Below the pieces are notes generated by a model. That model made no database searches and was not told the DNA's origin. It saw only the letters and a list, made by a program, of their open reading frames with translations. From positions 1-18,167 of the forward strand of contig PMWA01000105.1 of NCBI GenBank assembly GCA_003166335.1: a DNA stretch of 18,167 nucleotides. The letters run 5' to 3'. Made by a program: the position numbers and the translations under genes. This document shows, piece by piece, positions 1-10,121 of this stretch; the first letter of the stretch is position 1; the number at the start of each line of letters is the position of its first letter. Source of the stretch: Methanobacterium sp. GTDB taxonomy: Archaea; Methanobacteriota; Methanobacteria; Methanobacteriales; Methanobacteriaceae.

Positions 1-45
1 GTGCCGTCGTTCACTGTGCCCGACGCCGAAGGCAAACAGCAATAG

Positions 46-187
46 TATATCCACATTCCCAAGGCAATATTTAAACTTGAATACTTCCCCTTTATGTTTT
101 CCATGATGGAGTGTTCTTTGATAGGAGAACTCTTGACATTTAGGACATTGTTTTGCATAAAGATTTATCCAGTGGTATAACTGACAT
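46..187 (-). pseudogene. Degenerate small zinc-ribbon (CxxC...CxxC) protein
   Basis: Manual translation from ATG at 187 gives MSVIPLDKS, then after a frameshift YAKQCPKCQEFSYQRTLHHGKHKGEVFKFKYCL, then after a second frameshift ECGY. Two indels are needed to restore the CPKC...CLECG pattern. Confidence 0.35.
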
Positions 188-207
188 ATTAAATTTTAAA
201 TCTGTTG

Positions 208-256
208 AACTTCGCATAAAATATATAATTATATATTTTTATTATAATACGAAGTT
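208..256. repeat. Inverted repeat AACTTCGCAT...ATACGAAGTT enclosing a perfect 22-bp AT palindrome
   Basis: Arms at 208-217 and 247-256 (9/10 complementary); internal AAAATATATAATTATATATTTT at 218-239. Confidence 0.7.
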
Positions 257-379
257 GGAAACTTCCAAAATCTTGAAATATTAAAATCCTTTTCCATCCT
301 TTATTTACTTTAAAACTCCATGAGAATCCTCATTAAATCTGTATTACTTTTTTATACTTTTTTATAATTTAATATTTTT

Positions 380-407
380 ACTTCGTTAAACTCGACTATT
401 ACGAAGT
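380..407. other. Candidate tyrosine-recombinase (dif/lox-like) site, 11-6-11
   Basis: ACTTCGTTAAA-CTCGAC-TATTACGAAGT. Read as 13-8-13 (377-410), the arms match loxP arms at 9/13 and 10/13. Confidence 0.55.
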
Positions 408-523
408 TAACATTTGTGTATATAAAAAATTTTTATAATAAGCTATCAAACACCCCTATTCTAATAAACACTATTTTTACTACTAATTATAGTAATACTT
501 TATTTATTTAAAACAAAACATAT

Positions 524-951
524 TTAAATCGTATTTTCATAAAAATGCAAAACTAAAAGAGCTAGAAGACTAAATAAGCAATTATAATGGCTTCCGAAAG
601 GAAGCAGCCGGTTATATAAATCATCATTTTTAGCCAAAATATTTTGAATTTTCAACATAGAATCTGCATATTTTTTTTTCTTTTTATCAAAAGGTTTATT
701 TCCCCAACTTTCATTCCATTGCCTCAATGCAATGGTCAGATTTCCGAGTTTATCCTTATACTGTTCATGAATTATCTTTTCTTCAGCATTCAAATTTAGT
801 TTTGATGGATTATTTGGCCATACATGTTCAATCTGGAAATCTGGAACCAAAATATTTCAAGAGGTATTTCTAAAGATTCTTCCATTAATGATTTTTCATA
901 TTCATATAGTAGGTTCTTTATATCATTTTTAGAAATCTTATTATAGAAATT
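524..951 (-). pseudogene. Internal fragment of a DUF1524 (GmrSD C-terminal, HNH-like) nuclease domain protein
   Basis: Motifs IEHVWP, LGNLT, N-x4-NKPF..KK..Y..S. Coding signal continues upstream of 850 in another frame (NFYNKISKNDIKNLLYEYEKSL). There is no N-terminus, and homology appears to stop near 620. Confidence 0.7.
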
Positions 952-956
952 TAGGT

Positions 957-2081
957 TTATAGAAATTCTCCATATATATTTAAAGTTTTATGTGCTGCTT
1001 TATCCCAATTAAATAGTTTAGCTCTTTTTAATCCTTTATTTGTCATGTTATCCTTCAAAGTATCATTTGTCAGCACGTCATACATTTCATCGGCCATTAA
1101 TTCAATATCTTGTGGGTTTATCATTATCCCTGCGTCACCAACAACTTCAGGTAATGAGGTTGTGTTTGAGGTGATTACTGGTGTGCCGCAGGCCATTGCT
1201 TCCAATGGGGGAAGACCAAAACCTGCATAAGCACATGGATAAACCAGAATATCTGCAGCATTGTACCATTTGGGCATGTCTTCCTCTGGTACGTATCCAA
1301 CAAAAATAACATCTTCTTGTAAATGCAAGTCATTGATCAACTTTAAAATATTTTCACGTCCACGATAACCTTGAGATTCTCCTATTTTCACCATTTTAAT
1401 GCCTGGAATTTTTTTCTTAAGTTGTGCAAAAGCCTTTATCAAAACAGGGACGTTCTGTCGCGAGGTTTCAGAACCCACATAAAGCACAACTTTCTGATCA
1501 TTTGGAATCTTAATTTTACTTAAAATCTCTTTATCCTGATTCTCATAATAAACAGAATGATCAACAGCTGGATAAACAATTCTAATCCTTTCTTCAGGAT
1601 AATCTAAATATTTCATAATCTCCTCCTTAGAAAACTTAGAGATTGTAATAATAATATCCGCAAGTCCCAGCCCCTTCATGTTTTCTTTCCATATAGAAGA
1701 CCTGTCTTTGTCGTATACCCAAGGGATAAGATCGTAACATGTTACAATATTATTTTCAAGTTTAACAGAATTCAGGATATATGCAAATCCCTGTGAGGTT
1801 ATATGTTTGATATTGCCCTCTTTAACTTCATTCTTGACTGTGTGGATATATTTGTGTTTATCAATGGTTTTTAAAGTTTTTTTTCCCATATCTGTGATAA
1901 ATTTTAGTGATTTATTTTCATATGAGTCTGATTTGAGCGGCATCAATGAATCATATTCAATAACATTCAATTCAACATTTAACCGTTTAACTATCTCCAT
2001 CTGGTACTTAGATATAGATATCCAAAATATTTTATCTGTTCTGGACCCGTTTATATAATCGATTTCCATTAATTTCACCAT
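957..2081 (-). CDS. Glycosyltransferase family 4 (GT-B fold)
   Basis: 374 aa; [48 protein letters not shown] and [10 protein letters not shown] motifs. Confidence 0.93.
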
Positions 2082-2138
2082 ATTACAAACTATGTAACTC
2101 TATTAATGTATATTAACAGGGTTAAACTTGAATAAAAA

Positions 2139-2253
2139 ATGAAAATGAAACAAATTAACCTGAAACTAACAGAAAACCAACTTGATCAATTAGAACAGCT
2201 CTCAAATGCAATGGGTAATGTATAGTAAATCCAATCTAATTAGGATAGCATGT
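2139..2253 (+). pseudogene. Frameshifted ribbon-helix-helix (CopG-like) DNA-binding protein
   Basis: Not in ORF track. MKMKQINLKLTENQLDQLEQLSNAMGNV is followed by TAG; skipping 1 nt at ~2223 continues SKSNLIRIAC, completing a typical beta-helix-G-x-S-x-S-xx-IR RHH pattern. Confidence 0.65.
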
Positions 2254-2556
2254 ACTACAAATGTATGTATCAAGATAACATTGTTTGGGTTCTTCTTTGA
2301 AGATTAAATTAATATTTAAGTCTAAGATATTTATACTCTCTAAGATTCTGGTCCAATAGCCTATTAACTTCCATTCCTCACTTCTATCAAGATGCATTTC
2401 TACTTTTTGAATATAATCAATCTGTTCAATCATAGACCTATAAGTCCGATTGAAATCTTCCCTTGTAAATACAATAACTTCATCGTAGTTAAGGAACATT
2501 TCAGGATTATACAATTCTGCAATCCTTCCATTAGGTACCCCTTCACTCACTTTCAT
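2236..2556 (-). CDS. Hypothetical protein (mobile-element-like)
   Basis: 106-aa ORF, co-directional with the upstream small-gene cluster; shares a motif with 2922-3080. Confidence 0.6.
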   Translation of the reverse strand: MKVSEGVPNGRIAELYNPEMFLNYDEVIVFTREDFNRTYRSMIEQIDYIQKVEMHLDRSEEWKLIGYWTRILESINILDLNINLIFKEEPKQCYLDTYICSTCYPN

Positions 2557-2591
2557 TTAAAACTTCCTAATAATCAACATTAAAAATTTTT

Positions 2592-2729
2592 TTAGAATAT
2601 TATTCTATGTTGTAATATCAGCACGAACAATAAAGCTGCAAATGTCCAGGTACCTGCAACAAACATGCCAGTAAACAATGCATTGTAGTCCATTTTAGGC
2701 TCAACACAAGCTAAACAACGTTTATACAT
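2592..2729 (-). CDS. Small single-pass membrane protein with N-terminal CxxC (45 aa)
   Basis: Below ORF-track cutoff: MYKRCLACVEPKMDYNALFTGMFVAGTWTFAALLFVLILQHRIIF. Strong GGAGGTGA RBS; starts immediately after the stop of 2730-2912. Confidence 0.65.
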   Translation of the reverse strand: MYKRCLACVEPKMDYNALFTGMFVAGTWTFAALLFVLILQHRIIF

Positions 2730-2912
2730 TTATAAATCACCTCCAATCTTTTTATTCGATTTTATTGCACGCATAGTTATCTCACTAAAACGATTGTACT
2801 GATTATGGGAAAATGTCAAGTTACAATGAGGGCATAGATGCCAGAGCTCCTGTTCAGACGGTTTTTTAAGATAGTAATCTTCCATGGTTTCCCTGCAGTT
2901 GGAGCATTCCAT
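2730..2912 (-). CDS. Small zinc-ribbon protein
   Basis: 60 aa with CSNC and CPHC pairs; tightly packed with its neighbours. Confidence 0.7.
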   Translation of the reverse strand: MECSNCRETMEDYYLKKPSEQELWHLCPHCNLTFSHNQYNRFSEITMRAIKSNKKIGGDL

Positions 2913-2921
2913 AAAATCAGA

Positions 2922-3080
2922 TCAAATTTCCTTTCTTTTCATCTCAATTTCTTGGACTTGGTTCCTGGTGAACTCATACCAATTTATAAAATCTTTCTTA
3001 GGAATTATAAGCAATTCCTTATGCTTAGGCTTCTCAACGTTCTTTAAATCCTATTTTTCAATGGTTTTAGTGTTTTCCAT
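2922..3080 (-). pseudogene. Small hypothetical gene interrupted by in-frame TAG at codon 10
   Basis: GAGGAGTGA RBS, ATG at 3080; MENTKTIEK*DLKNVEKPKHKELLIIPKKDFINWYEFTRNQVQEIEMKRKEI; TAG at 3051-3053. Confidence 0.55.
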
Positions 3081-3099
3081 AATATCACTCCTCAGGGTG

Positions 3100-3115
3100 G
3101 ATCACTATAGTGATC
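3100..3115. promoter_or_regulatory. Perfect 16-bp palindrome GATCACTATAGTGATC (operator or 5'-UTR hairpin)
   Basis: Directly visible; ~20 bp upstream of the ATG at 3080 and downstream of a minus-strand TTTATATC box (3191-3198). Confidence 0.5.
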
Positions 3116-3342
3116 AACATTAACGAGGCTTACCCGAGAGAGCAAATGATAAGTAAAAATAATAAAAATGTTTGATTTATGATTAAAGTAGATATAAAGA
3201 CAGTTTCAGAATTAATATTTTCAAAAAAAATTGTTAAAATGGAATTTTAAGGATCAAAATAAGGCTAATGTAAGGAAAAACAGTTTAAAATACGGTATAT
3301 TTAAATATCTTCATTTATAAAACTATGATTAGGTGATAAAAT

Positions 3343-3552
3343 ATGTCTGAATTACCATTAGCTCCAATAAAAAGAATAATAAAAAATGCAGGTGGACAAA
3401 GAGTCAGTGAGGGTGCAGAAGTAGCTTTAGGAAAAGCATTAGAAATATGTGGTGAAGAAGTCTCTATTAAAGCAGTTAGACTTGCAAAACACGCTGGAAG
3501 AGTAACAGTTAACGCATCTGACATTGAACTAGCCCTTAAAGAAATTGCTTAA
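3343..3552 (+). CDS. Archaeal histone (HMf/HMt family), divergent paralog
   Basis: 69 aa: [19 protein letters not shown]...KHAGRxTV.ASDIELA; AGGTGA RBS; T-tracts downstream. Confidence 0.96.
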
Positions 3553-3556
3553 ATTA

Positions 3557-3582
3557 TTTCTTTTTTTTATTCTATTTTTTTT
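3557..3582 (+). terminator. Oligo-T archaeal terminator of histone gene
   Basis: Two T8 runs (3561-3568, 3575-3582) just after the stop codon. Confidence 0.55.
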
Positions 3583-3637
3583 AAACTTCATTGTTCTCTA
3601 TTAACAATTTTGTAGAAACTTAATAACAATATTTTCA

Positions 3638-3663
3638 ACTTCGGATCCCAACATTAAACAAGT
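3638..3663. other. Degenerate ACTTCG-family inverted-repeat site (26 bp)
   Basis: ACTTCGGATCC-CAAC-ATTAAACAAGT (AACTT...AAGTT ends); lies between convergent histone and Lit-like genes. Confidence 0.35.
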
Positions 3664-3694
3664 TAGAAAAGAATTCTAAATAATCATGAGTTTA

Positions 3695-4834
3695 CTAACA
3701 ATGTTTACGAAATTTTTTTATAATTTTCATAAATTCATCCTCACTGCCCAAATCCTCAATTGGAGTAAGATTTACCTTACAATATGGTTCTAATAATGGT
3801 CTCACATTACGCCAGTTATTCTGAATTTTATACATTTGTTCCCATCCTTTTCTAGTATAAGTACATCCCATTGGGAGAGAATGGAAACGATCAATAAAAG
3901 GGGGTGTAACTGAACCTTTCTTCAAAATTTTTAATGAATCTTCAACTTCCTTAATTGCTAATGAAGTCTTATTACAGATACTATCATTTAAATTTGAATA
4001 TTTAGAATCCATAATAATTGTAGGGATAATTACTCCAATATAATGTTGCCTAAAACCAGGATAAGGATGTGAATATACATCTAATTCGTTAAAGTTATAC
4101 TCTATATTTCCAAAAAATCTAAAGAGTGTATAAGTTGAAAATGTCCATAAAAACAATGCATCTTCAAGGGAATTAAAATAAGGCTTAATTTTTTCAGGTA
4201 AAATTTTCGTTGTTTGATAGTTAATGAGTATATCTTTAATACCAACACTAGCAGCATAACAATCAGCATCATATTCGAGAGTCTGGGAAATTAAACCGCC
4301 GCTTTTTTTTATACTCACCATCTCAGAAATAAAGGACATACCATATTCTTCTTTAAGCTCCAGATGTCCATCTATTATATGCGCATATTCATGCCAAATT
4401 AAAAATAATACTGCAAAATGAAATAATCCCTCTGCATAAATTTTTCTTTCTTTATCTTTAGGTTTTATCATATTTGCATTACTTATATCAAAAATAGGTT
4501 CTATTTCATTTCCATTATTACCTACAAAACTCAATACATTGGGAAATGACAACAAATAGTTAAAAAATATATATAAATTAGAAATTGCCCCATGATTTAT
4601 GCCTATATAGTATGAATCATTATCTTTGAATGTATATGCATTAAATGATGAATTGTCAATAAAATCGATGTACACATCAGGTACATTTGGATTAATTTTC
4701 CTTAACCCTTCTATTAATCCTACTCCTTTCTTACGTGCTTCTGCTAAAAGACAAGATAAGAATTGACCTTTTTTGAGATAAAATTTACCACCAAAATCTT
4801 TGGTCCTTTTATCAAAAATAATATCTTTATCCAT
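3695..4834 (-). CDS. Lit-like phage-exclusion zinc metallopeptidase (peptidase U49 family)
   Basis: 379 aa; FNA..F....Y.IGIN.G, FLIWHEYAHIIDGH (HExxH), LEYDADCYA and HPYPGFR motifs characteristic of Lit/U49. Confidence 0.8.
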   Translation of the reverse strand: MDKDIIFDKRTKDFGGKFYLKKGQFLSCLLAEARKKGVGLIEGLRKINPNVPDVYIDFIDNSSFNAYTFKDNDSYYIGINHGAISNLYIFFNYLLSFPNVLSFVGNNGNEIEPIFDISNANMIKPKDKERKIYAEGLFHFAVLFLIWHEYAHIIDGHLELKEEYGMSFISEMVSIKKSGGLISQTLEYDADCYAASVGIKDILINYQTTKILPEKIKPYFNSLEDALFLWTFSTYTLFRFFGNIEYNFNELDVYSHPYPGFRQHYIGVIIPTIIMDSKYSNLNDSICNKTSLAIKEVEDSLKILKKGSVTPPFIDRFHSLPMGCTYTRKGWEQMYKIQNNWRNVRPLLEPYCKVNLTPIEDLGSEDEFMKIIKKFRKHC

Positions 4835-4931
4835 TTTTAATCCTTATTCCCATAGATCGGTAGAATTAACAATTAATTTAATTTTAATATTATATACTTT
4901 ATTTCAGAATTGAGTAAATAAAAATATTTCT

Positions 4932-4959
4932 AATTCGTTAAATCGTGCTATACAGAAGT
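4932..4959. other. Candidate recombination site, second 11-6-11 copy
   Basis: AATTCGTTAAA-TCGTGC-TATACAGAAGT. Arms are 10/11 and 8/11 identical to the 380-407 site; the spacer differs. Confidence 0.5.
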
Positions 4960-4987
4960 AAAGAAAAAATAAAAAATTAATTCTCTA

Positions 4988-5713
4988 TTATTCAGGTTTA
5001 TAATGGTCTATAAGATTAAGTATTTTGCTAGAATAAAGTTCTAATTCCCTAAACATACTTTCACTCAAAACATTGGAATGAGCAATGGTATTTCGAGGAA
5101 TCTCAAGACTTTCTAAATATGTCTGAGTTACTACCTGATCCTTAAAAACATCTTCAAATAGATCCCAATTTTTATTTATTATTTTAATAAGGTCAGAAAA
5201 ATCAGTATATTGGATATTGCTTTTTGGTAATTGTATATGCCAATCATGGAGGCTATGAGTCTTTATATTATCTTTTACTTGTTTAGATACATTTGTTTCC
5301 CACCAATCAGGACCTTTATTCTGTTCTAATAGATATGAAATAAAAAATCGTAATTTGTTCTCAAAACTAACAAATAATGCATAAGCACTCATCATTCTTC
5401 TCAAATCTTCTTCAAAAGATTTTATTATATGTTCAGTGACTGGGACTTCAATATTTACATTTGGAACTTTCCCGAATTTTTCTTTAATTTTAAACTCAAT
5501 AATATTAGGATCATCTTTAAGAATCTCAACTTCTCCCAATTCCGCCAAATAGCTTAATACTCTTCTTGAATTCCACTTACCTATTACTCTATGTCTAAAT
5601 GGAGGATGGCCAATATCTTCAGTGCTAAACGTATCGTCTTGATAAATATCTACCATATTCTTTATAACACCTTTCACATATTCCACTTGAGCATCCAAAG
5701 GTAATTTTCTCAT
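4988..5713 (-). CDS. Swt1-like HEPN domain protein (putative RNase) with N-terminal extra domain
   Basis: 241 aa; Y..F..FEN.LR.FI...L.....WW, Y.DF.DL..II..NW..F and RNTIAH (Rx4H) motifs; GGAGG RBS. Confidence 0.82.
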   Translation of the reverse strand: MRKLPLDAQVEYVKGVIKNMVDIYQDDTFSTEDIGHPPFRHRVIGKWNSRRVLSYLAELGEVEILKDDPNIIEFKIKEKFGKVPNVNIEVPVTEHIIKSFEEDLRRMMSAYALFVSFENKLRFFISYLLEQNKGPDWWETNVSKQVKDNIKTHSLHDWHIQLPKSNIQYTDFSDLIKIINKNWDLFEDVFKDQVVTQTYLESLEIPRNTIAHSNVLSESMFRELELYSSKILNLIDHYKPE

Positions 5714-5785
5714 TCATATCCCTCCCATTAATGATTTTTATATGGTGAGTAGGATATAAATTTATTAATTTATATTATAATTTCT

Positions 5786-5811
5786 ACTTCGTATGGTCAA
5801 TATAAAGAAAT
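5786..5811. other. Degenerate ACTTCG-family site (26 bp)
   Basis: ACTTCGTATGG-TCAA-TATAAAGAAAT; right arm is 9/11 identical to the right arm of 4932-4959. Confidence 0.4.
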
Positions 5812-5863
5812 CACACTAAAAAAAAATATTCAAAAAATAAAAAATTTTTTGATTAACCTTTTT

Positions 5864-6277
5864 TTAAAGTTTCCTAGAATGGACTATAGAATGGGTTAGC
5901 ATGTTGCACATCATCATTGGTATTGTCAACTGGACGTGAACAGTATTAAAAGTTATTTTGCTTCCTTTACGGTCTTCTGGATTTGCATCTAAATAATCAT
6001 CTATAAGTTCCTTAGCTTGTTTCTCCCAAGCTGCCGCTGCTGGATTACGGGCTTCATTACTTTTATAATAGGCATCTAATATGATAACAGCAGCATAGAG
6101 ATTGGCAGCCTGGATAATAGCATCTGGTGTTGGGTGAGGTAAGGTTACTCTTTGGACCTTATTTCTTATTCTTTGGTCTGCAAAAGTTAAAGCCTGTGCC
6201 ATATTAGTTTCTTGGATATTTGTAGGCACGTCTTGTACTAAAACTGTTAATGCCGCCTCATCTGCAAAAGTTATCAT
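5864..6277 (-). CDS. Putative viral head-tail adaptor/connector-like protein; C-terminus probably frameshifted
   Basis: 137 aa with helical pattern A...AD..I.....P.P..I..A....AA..........A...I, reminiscent of gp6/gp15/Mu gp36-type adaptors; GAGGTGA RBS. An alternative frame from ~5939 gives SRPVDNTNDDVQHANPFYSPF*, ending at 5874. Confidence 0.5.
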   Translation of the reverse strand: MITFADEAALTVLVQDVPTNIQETNMAQALTFADQRIRNKVQRVTLPHPTPDAIIQAANLYAAVIILDAYYKSNEARNPAAAAWEKQAKELIDDYLDANPEDRKGSKITFNTVHVQLTIPMMMCNMLTHSIVHSRKL

Positions 6278-6302
6278 TAAATCACCTCAAAAAAATTAGT
6301 TA

Positions 6303-7073
6303 TTAATCGTAGAAGGGATCCATAGCATCATTAGGATCTAAAAGACCACTCTCTGGCGGAATCGGAGTATCTTTACGTGATGTAAACACTTCAAATCCGA
6401 ATTCAACCTCTTCCTGCTCCAATCCATTATTATAGGTCGCTTTACCAAAATACGTGTATAAACCTGTAGCCAGTACTAAACCCTGCATATTACCTCTTTG
6501 AACAATAGAACCAGAATAAGCAATATTTCCTATCTTTTTATCTAACGGTAATGATTCTCCAGTTAAAGCAGATTCATCCACGGTGAGGTAGCTGTCTTCA
6601 ATGAGTTTGACATCTGCCGGGATTATATCCCCTAAATGCACTCTCACTACATCACCAGGCACGATTTCTTTAGAAGGTAATTCTATCCATTTACCGTCTC
6701 GAAGTACTTCGGCTTTGTATGATAATTTTTCTTTCAAGAGGTCAATAGTGTTATCTGCTGTATATTCTTGATAAAATCCAACAAGACCATTTATCATTAA
6801 TAAAATGAATATAATTGTGAATTCCTGCCAATGCTGGATGATCAGAGATAAAATAAGAGCAATTTCAATCATCCATGGAATAGGACCCCAGAAGAAATTC
6901 AGAAATTTTTTAATTGGACTAACTTTTTCTTCAGTGATTTCGTTAAACCCGTATTCAGTTAGTCTTTTTTGTGCCTCTTTCGATGAAAGACCGTGGGTAG
7001 TAGATGATAATTGGTTCAGTAAATCTGAAATTTCAATTTCTTCTGATTTTTGAACATCGATGGACTGATCCAT
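6303..7073 (-). pseudogene. Truncated P-type (type IIIA, H+-efflux) ATPase N-terminus fused in-frame to a 43-aa unrelated tail
   Basis: GLSSKEA..RL..YG.NEI, FWGPIPWMIE, PGD, GDIIPAD, VDESALTGESLP and TG..TYFGK are present. Homology ends at ~aa 212 (6441), and there is no DKTGT phosphorylation site. Confidence 0.85.
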
Positions 7074-9366: not shown

Positions 9367-10121
9367 ATGGAGAAAAATGAACTTTATTCTATAATATTCA
9401 AGCGAAAATCGATTAGAAACTATGATTTAACCTCGCTTAATAAGAATATACTTACTGAGATTTCGAACCATTTCCAGTCTTTAAAGCATATGTACGATGA
9501 CATTAAAATTGAATTGAAGATTATATCACCAGATATGGTTAAAAGAAGAGTGATGAAAAAAGCACCGCATTATATAGCCGTGTTTTCAGAATCAAAGGAC
9601 GGTTATTTAACCAACGTGGGATTCATGTTGCAGCAATGGATCTGTTCCTCTCAGCACGTGGTATTGGCTCTTGCTGGCAGGGGATTCCTAAACCTACTAA
9701 AGAATTGTTGAAGAGTTCGAATTTAGAGTTTGTAATTTTCATAGCCTTCCGGCAGCCTAGCGAGCAGTTGCATAGGACAGATGTTTCTGAGTTCAAGAGA
9801 AAATCTCTTCAAGAAATAACTAACATTAAAGATGCTGATGTACTATTGGAAGCGGTGCGTCTGGCTCCATCAGCGACTAACAGTCAGCCATGGTTTTTTT
9901 CGGGTGATGATAAATTTATGCATGTTTATAGTGTTAAATTAGGCTTTATAAAATCTTTAATAGTAAAAAAGTACATTCCTATAGATGTAGGTATTGCTAT
10001 TTATCATTTACATGTTGCAGCTGAACATTTTGGTAAGAAAGTTAAAATTTTCGTTGATGAACCAGCGAAGATGAATCCTCCTAAAGATTGTGAGTATGTG
10101 GCAAGTTTGAAGATTGAATAG
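9367..10121 (+). pseudogene. Nitroreductase-family protein split by a 1-nt frameshift
   Basis: RKSIRNY N-terminus, GFMLQQ/MDLFLSARGIGSCWQG and APSATNSQPW motifs. CAG CAA TGG at 9631-9639 lacks one A relative to CAG CAA ATG. Confidence 0.85.

Follow-up and report, generated by a model that had tools for sequence, protein, structure and literature searches.

The locus and its repeated site

We analysed an 18,167-nucleotide stretch of DNA from Methanobacterium sp. (contig PMWA01000105.1 of assembly GCA_003166335.1), referred to as a whole as the window, in which accessory and virus-derived genes near the left end are separated by short inverted repeats built on the hexamer ACTTCG (Table 1). The original prediction, made from the letters of the window, was that these repeats are dif/lox-like sites at which a tyrosine recombinase acquires and shuffles anti-viral gene cassettes. 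All six copies of ACTTCG that it listed are present, and the sequences at 380 and 4932 read as it described, that is, as 28-bp sites in 11-6-11 arrangement. Its four sites are not equivalent, however: the one at 380 is intact, the one at 4932 is weakened, and those at 3638 and 5786 have each lost 2 bp and count as decayed. The ACTTCG pair at 209 and 250 exists, but forms a 47-bp element rather than a 28-bp site. A similar element recurs about 125-160 bp from a full site in L088, with a partial copy on contig C61. Contigs from four public runs bridge 3638, and three of these bridge 380, 4932 and 5786, so the arrangement seen in the window is not an assembly artefact.

Table 1. Sites, repeats and genes in the left part of the window
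Feature	Position	Strand	Remarks
47-bp element	209..255		AT-rich core between two outward arms; distinct from the 28-bp sites
Intact 11-6-11 site, spacer CTCGAC	380..407		score 33.1; spacer recurs in other genomes
GmrSD-type nuclease, C-terminal fragment	524..850	-	PF07510 E 2.9e-12; 88% match inside a longer G156 reading region
GT4 glycosyltransferase, accessory	957..2081	-	family match
Repeated segment, ~0.9 kb	2251..3169		copies on C17, C34, C124; two open reading frames tested, no family found
Archaeal histone gene	3343..3552	+	variant or decayed site after 5 of 12 histone matches in the source genome
Decayed site, 26 bp	3638..3663		score <5; spacer related to C36:6694 and C37:37066; histone-copy homology stops here
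Peptidase U49 (Lit)-like HExxH protein	3695..4834	-	hidden Markov model (HMM) matches weak (E 3e-4, 9e-4); Atlas support; in 2 of 251 genomes
28-bp site, weakened arms, spacer TCGTGC	4932..4959		score 21.5; matches C36 at 90% over 48 bp
Swt1-like HEPN protein, candidate defence RNase	4988..5713	-	PF18731 E 3.4e-11; PADLOC PDC-M34B E 4e-31; in 3 of 251 genomes
Decayed site, 26 bp	5786..5811		score 6.4 with a 4-bp spacer; directly 3' of a viral gene
Probable head-tail adaptor gene, virus-derived	5864..6277	-	46% identity to L197:1712-2125 (E 7e-37); in viral clusters, with a Mu gp36-like lead
Viral gene end fused to truncated P-type ATPase	6303..6439	-	63% over 41 amino acids to L197:2130-2591

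The 28-bp dyad has the consensus ACTTCGT(T/A)A(A/T)A-N6-T(A/T)T(A/T)ACGAAGT, with fixed, near-symmetric 11-bp arms and variable 6-bp spacers, and about 20-26 copies are present in the genome from which the window comes (the source genome). Perfect pairs of the outer hexamers occur there seven times at a span of 28 bp and at most twice at any other of 41 spacings tried. A matrix search of the same genome finds 20 sites (score >=16, 6-bp spacer) against 0.4 in five local shuffles, an enrichment that is partly circular in that the matrix was trained on 15 of the site copies. Within the window ACTTCG is seen 11 times where 3.76 are expected, a count that none of 200 shuffles attains.

Of 27 source-genome sites scoring at least 17, 25 fall outside called open reading frames, at distances of 4 to more than 1000 bp from genes; six lie between convergent, three between divergent and 15 between tandem genes, and three at contig ends. 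Given no fixed distance or orientation to genes, a promoter operator does not fit, which extends to every gene orientation an argument first made from the convergent genes around 3638. An apparent excess of sites at contig ends was dropped as a signal, since four of 26 against 1.3 expected is only a weak enrichment.

Distribution, XerA and chromosomal position

The sites are real, neither artefactual nor local to the window, and represent an order-wide chromosomal and plasmid site. A scan of related Methanobacteriaceae genomes, which had been proposed as a check, finds the site (<=2 mismatches) in 109 of the 151 genomes of the family, and phylum-wide it is present in 138 of 230 Methanobacteriota genomes, with a reversed control pattern giving 0-2 matches per genome. 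Across the 49 of 64 parts of the GTDB contigs covered by an exact scan there are 114 loci, 105 of them with methanobacterial or euryarchaeal labels; nine bear bacterial labels, and eight of these nine are short contigs of metagenome-assembled genomes. A looser pattern was discarded, its control counts exceeding its matches. Spacers are diverse (87 kinds among 124 sites), and most genera have 2-16 copies per genome, single copies being confined to some host-associated genera.

All eight plasmid records scanned have one best site each (scores 13.2-30.5; next candidate <=2.7), while a 42-base blastn search of the site against plasmids gave nothing useful. Six viral contigs match the motif, one of which (L197) has two sites in its head module; three others (L193, L194 and L198, the last bacterial-looking by its open reading frames) could not be tied to methanogen hosts and were set aside. 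No virus record of the phage collection encodes a close XerA (best 35-41%). Some arrangements stand apart from this general picture. On virus contig L195 (3984-7539) six related sites with similar spacers lie between small early genes, possibly as a cassette array, and in G006 inverted same-spacer pairs delimit candidate invertible segments of 2.2 kb (L275:3059-5309) and 0.4 kb (L276:3093-3548), one of them by an adhesin-like gene. A same-spacer pair in G273, considered as attL/attR, proved to be a terminal assembly duplication, since its flanks and genes are identical.

The window has no recombinase gene, as the original prediction had noted, and the best tyrosine recombinase of the source genome is XerA, on contig C22 (NF040815, 358 bits against a cut-off of 220). 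Seven further tyrosine-recombinase matches are found in this genome, several on contigs that also bear sites. Among the genomes compared, the site (<=2 mismatches) is present in 109 of 121 with XerA (E<1e-100), in none of four with a diverged or split XerA, and in one of 36 without XerA, 16 of the latter being known only by tallies from which we infer their identity. The suggestion that a tyrosine recombinase such as XerA is the likely enzyme is thus supported both by the 11-6-11 geometry and by this tracking (109/121 versus 1/40), though Fisher values for the co-occurrence are overstated because the genomes are kin. Within genus g5, a site whose spacer is of a conserved type persists in all three XerA-retaining genomes; of the complete genomes, two are devoid of XerA (best E 1e-6) as well as of the site. 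In this genus 36 of 42 genomes have no XerA match at E<=1e-40. The recognition segment of the source-genome XerA resembles the XerC-type motif in Fig. S1 of PMC2958812, and the site arms look similar to those listed for XerC in Table 1 of PMC13141974, with the inner bases out of register.

With the best Cdc6 match taken as a proxy for the origin, the angular distance from cdc6 is about 172 degrees for the sole site of G041 and 181 degrees for the top-scoring one of G037. In all eight multi-site near-complete genomes cdc6 falls within the largest site-free gap and a site stands at 167-179 degrees; in multi-site genomes only three of 57 sites lie within 45 degrees of cdc6, against about 14 expected. 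The eight genomes amount to about four lineages, and the joint P is about 0.02. Sites are roughly 150-180 kb apart in family f2, but even spacing was rejected as a general rule (minimum-gap P<0.05 in four of 14 genomes, three of them close kin; Greenwood test 0 of 14).

Probable footprints of recombination

The clearest footprint is on a plasmid. The 4.4-kb plasmid type (L199, matching NC_002125.1), which we take to be pME2001, has an intact site, and in NZ_CP113502 the site of a plasmid of this type is split by a 1.5-kb insert, with the same spacer on both halves. The insert is a circularly permuted piece of pFV1, more than 98.6% identical to it, and its source on pFV1 holds that same spacer together with one arm-like side. 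A split site with a doubled spacer is the product expected of integration by a tyrosine recombinase. The 1.5-kb segment on pFV1 (L269:2852-4353, presumably FR-I) has flanks of a 6-bp direct repeat and arm-like sequence at one end, and evidently circularises. Between pFV1 and pFZ1, alignment stops 7 bp beyond the site, ahead of differing restriction-modification regions.

On chromosomes, aligning relatives to see whether breakpoints fall at the sites, as had been suggested, gave a positive answer. In family f2 (49 sites from seven of nine genomes, with an anchor flank of 100 bp at least 85% identical and the other flank unrelated), flanks switch at 20 of 56 anchored sides, compared with 54 of 722 non-coding control anchors; leaving out two soft loci (four rows) gives 16 of 56, at about seven loci. 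When 13 switch pairs were re-examined, 11 alignments were found to end at site positions +12 to +32 and two to run through, and some switches fall within the spacer.

Two blocks of DNA next to sites deserve separate mention. At L208:2833-6006 a 3.2-kb insert directly adjoins a site and encodes a 624-residue P-loop protein that by eye is KAP-family NTPase-like. At L041:1720-5772 (contig C16 of the source genome) a 4-kb block with no recognised viral gene lies between two sites inside a provirus, in the interval between portal and head protease.

Taken together, these observations suggest that the motif is probably the dif site of Methanobacteriales XerA, which some lineages have once or twice, opposite cdc6, and others about 4-20 times, the spacers then differing; plasmids and some viruses have it as well. 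The basis for this assignment is the combination of 11-6-11 geometry, order-wide conservation, co-occurrence with XerA, placement off cdc6, one copy per plasmid and the flank changes. To judge from those changes, the multiplied sites have probably been reused as an entry point for accessory DNA.

Several points weigh against this reading. Some flank switches join non-matching spacers, and several chromosomal breaks retain the locus-specific arm and are placed not in the spacer but at that arm's outer border. The far ends of chromosomal inserts, such as the 3.2-kb one, have no spacer copy, and the restriction-modification regions of pFV1 and pFZ1 have a full site at one side only. A wider and more diverged set of 188 sites gave only a modest signal (8 of 81 sharp ends versus 3.1 expected). 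In eight public runs on the window and C16, no joint at a site is among the joints listed for the contigs; one joint (4833 to 5813 on C16) passes over a site, ending 41 bp past it. Twelve of the 121 XerA-positive genomes have no site at <=2 mismatches, some of them holding more diverged copies, and three g5 genomes with an approximately 50% identical XerA have none at <=3 mismatches; the loss in g5 could moreover be a single event, in which other genes may have gone with xerA. As regards position, cdc6 merely stands in for oriC, and accessory DNA may itself shun the origin. Finally, no spacer is shared in 263 within-genome pairs from 14 complete genomes, against 26 of 3653 pairs between genomes, a difference that is not significant.

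Breaks at the outer edge of an arm could instead mean that the site serves to bind a protein, chromosome-organising or regulatory, and undergoes no recombination, with elements inserting beside the bound protein, much as IS1202-family elements insert 5 bp from pdif/dif arms (PMC10132070); the distances of about 150-180 kb in family f2 would suit such a protein too. We consider this improbable, because the split plasmid site with its duplicated spacer and the switches within spacers need crossing over within the site, and also because the sites keep no fixed relation to genes and vanish along with XerA.

It is also quite unlikely that the sites are attachment (att) sites of integrases on mobile elements or proviruses rather than sites of the host XerA. 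The additional tyrosine recombinases of the source genome, several of them on site-bearing contigs, are what one might look to for such enzymes, as is an integrase-like reading frame beside the site cluster of G061, and many source-genome copies adjoin virus remnants. Yet four plasmid records without an annotated integrase each have a site, psiM100, which has its own integrase, uses a different att and has no site, in G068 the XerA search yields a single candidate for six sites, and the presence of the site tracks XerA.

Cargo, proposed mechanism and known systems

Positions 1-6438 of the window are missing from the syntenic loci of 11 relatives, except for one 0.5-kb repeat match (L022). The right edge of this island, at the junction of viral gene end and ATPase, has no site, and relatives align only from 6439 or later. 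On virus contig L197 a full site follows the adaptor gene, which is the position of the decayed 5786 copy in the window. The predicted identity of the Swt1-HEPN gene is confirmed by both Pfam and PADLOC, and that of the Lit-like gene is upheld as Peptidase U49-like by Atlas, the HMM matches being weak. Positions 1-6438 are likely a virus-derived island now in decay, and events at its old sites would have left the Lit-like and HEPN genes between them.

Other features of the window include a non-coding repeat of about 160 bp (449-607) with further copies on contigs C31, C64, C78 and C123, and small unannotated reading frames in the segment 2251-3169, which is multi-copy in the source genome and in relatives. 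The histone copies on C33, C36, C7, C114 and C50 diverge past their variant or decayed site. Outside the island, a nitroreductase gene (9367-10121) is split across two overlapping frames.

Contig C36 offers a paralogous locus. Its histone region is 94% identical to that of the window and is followed, in matching order and orientation, by a related-spacer site, four other open reading frames (one for a ParE-type toxin) and a TCGTGC site. Of the two spacers, one is thus identical between C36 (at 4821) and the window (at 4932) and the other is related. This suggests an old exchange between sites, and the comparison would be the best sign of the Lit-like gene arriving as a module. The difference between the loci would fit the two-step replacement of a single module between spacer-matched pairs that is known from pdif modules (PMC13141974).

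Beyond this locus the cargo is mixed. Of the four homologues of the Lit-like and Swt1 genes, three lie away from any site and the fourth has a decayed site at one side. Of 43 site-adjacent proteins in the source genome only five have PADLOC matches, of which two look specific; Pfam matches among 130 open reading frames near sites include Schlafen/AlbA, HEPN and ParE proteins, and many copies flank virus remnants. The local integron-like array of the original prediction, each defence gene being a single-gene cassette shuffled at present, is accordingly very doubtful: the Lit-like and HEPN genes do have sites on either side, C36 holds other cargo between related spacers and a site stands before the plasmid restriction-modification regions, but two of the three bounding sites are broken, all three spacers differ, homologues elsewhere are mostly without sites, most cargo is not defence-related and no junction variants are among the contig matches listed for four public runs.

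If the motif is the XerA dif, XerA would bind the arms and exchange strands across the spacer, resolving chromosome and plasmid dimers. With spacers that differ, a site would pair chiefly with its own sister copy and not with other sites, an orthogonality that would follow from the spacer rule given in PMC13141974, within-genome uniqueness being not statistically shown. Circular or viral DNA that enters with a matching spacer could then integrate at a site, as in the one clear footprint, and two successive events could swap the block between two sites. Site-bearing viruses may spread further copies, which would subsequently decay as in the window.

Archaeal dif is described as single-copy in PMC8371274, where how archaea steer Xer recombination without a known activating partner is called an open question. 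The XerA/dif systems of Pyrococcus, Thermococcus, Thermoplasma and Sulfolobus (PMC2958812 and PMC8371274) resemble the present one in having one XerA and an 11-6-11 intergenic site, which in few-copy genomes here lies opposite the origin. In contrast, most genera here have not one copy per chromosome but 2-16 per genome, with differing spacers, and the site is also on plasmids and viruses. The Methanosphaera stadtmanae dif candidate in Fig. S6 of PMC2958812 (HMM E 0.00019) is unlike the motif, whereas contigs labelled M. stadtmanae bear the motif.

Acinetobacter pdif/dif modules, which include chromosomal dif module islands, likewise have many 28-bp Xer sites with variable spacers (PMC13141974 and PMC12907356). 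The window/C36 pattern could be a case of their single-module replacement, the arms resemble those of XerC (PMC13141974, Table 1) and methanobacterial XerA has an XerC-like XR key motif (PMC2958812, Fig. S1). Unlike pdif modules, however, the present system has one recombinase and near-symmetric arms with no C/D alternation, and most copies are solitary, dispersed and vertically kept on the chromosome rather than clustered in module arrays.

Integrative mobile elements exploiting Xer (IMEX) and plasmids with cer/psi sites are carriers that use the host Xer site without an integrase of their own. In NZ_CP113502, the split site, duplicated spacer and integrase-free insert make up one case of this type, with integration via a half-degenerate site of matching spacer; no description of IMEX-type use of Xer sites in archaea was found in the literature searched. 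Integrons (attI/attC), archaeal ones included, capture genes at short sites by means of a tyrosine recombinase. Here there is no adjacent intI and there are no long attC hairpins, the site being a short 28-bp dyad of double-stranded type.

No title or abstract start in the literature covered, which leaves aside older and subscription papers and bioRxiv supplements, describes the motif or multiple dif sites in Methanobacteriales. What would be new is a probable dif that is multiplied on chromosomes of many lineages with distinct spacers and, on comparative evidence, probably used for the entry of accessory DNA. More tentatively, at somewhat less than even chances, the chromosome may be a barcoded multi-dif one, with as many as some twenty XerA sites, no two alike in spacer, spread over the terminus-side two thirds; dimers could be resolved at any of them without an FtsK-type motor, and the sites would serve as orthogonal docks that capture and exchange plasmids, viruses and defence genes. 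If true, this would be a natural cassette-exchange system in archaea.

The motif provides an exact candidate dif for the whole order, including the genetically tractable Methanothermobacter, and it is also present on the small 4.4-kb plasmid type, which presumably serves for shuttle vectors. The motif also suggests how accessory genes, those for restriction-modification among them, may reach methanogen genomes, and which native sequences could serve as landing pads in engineering.

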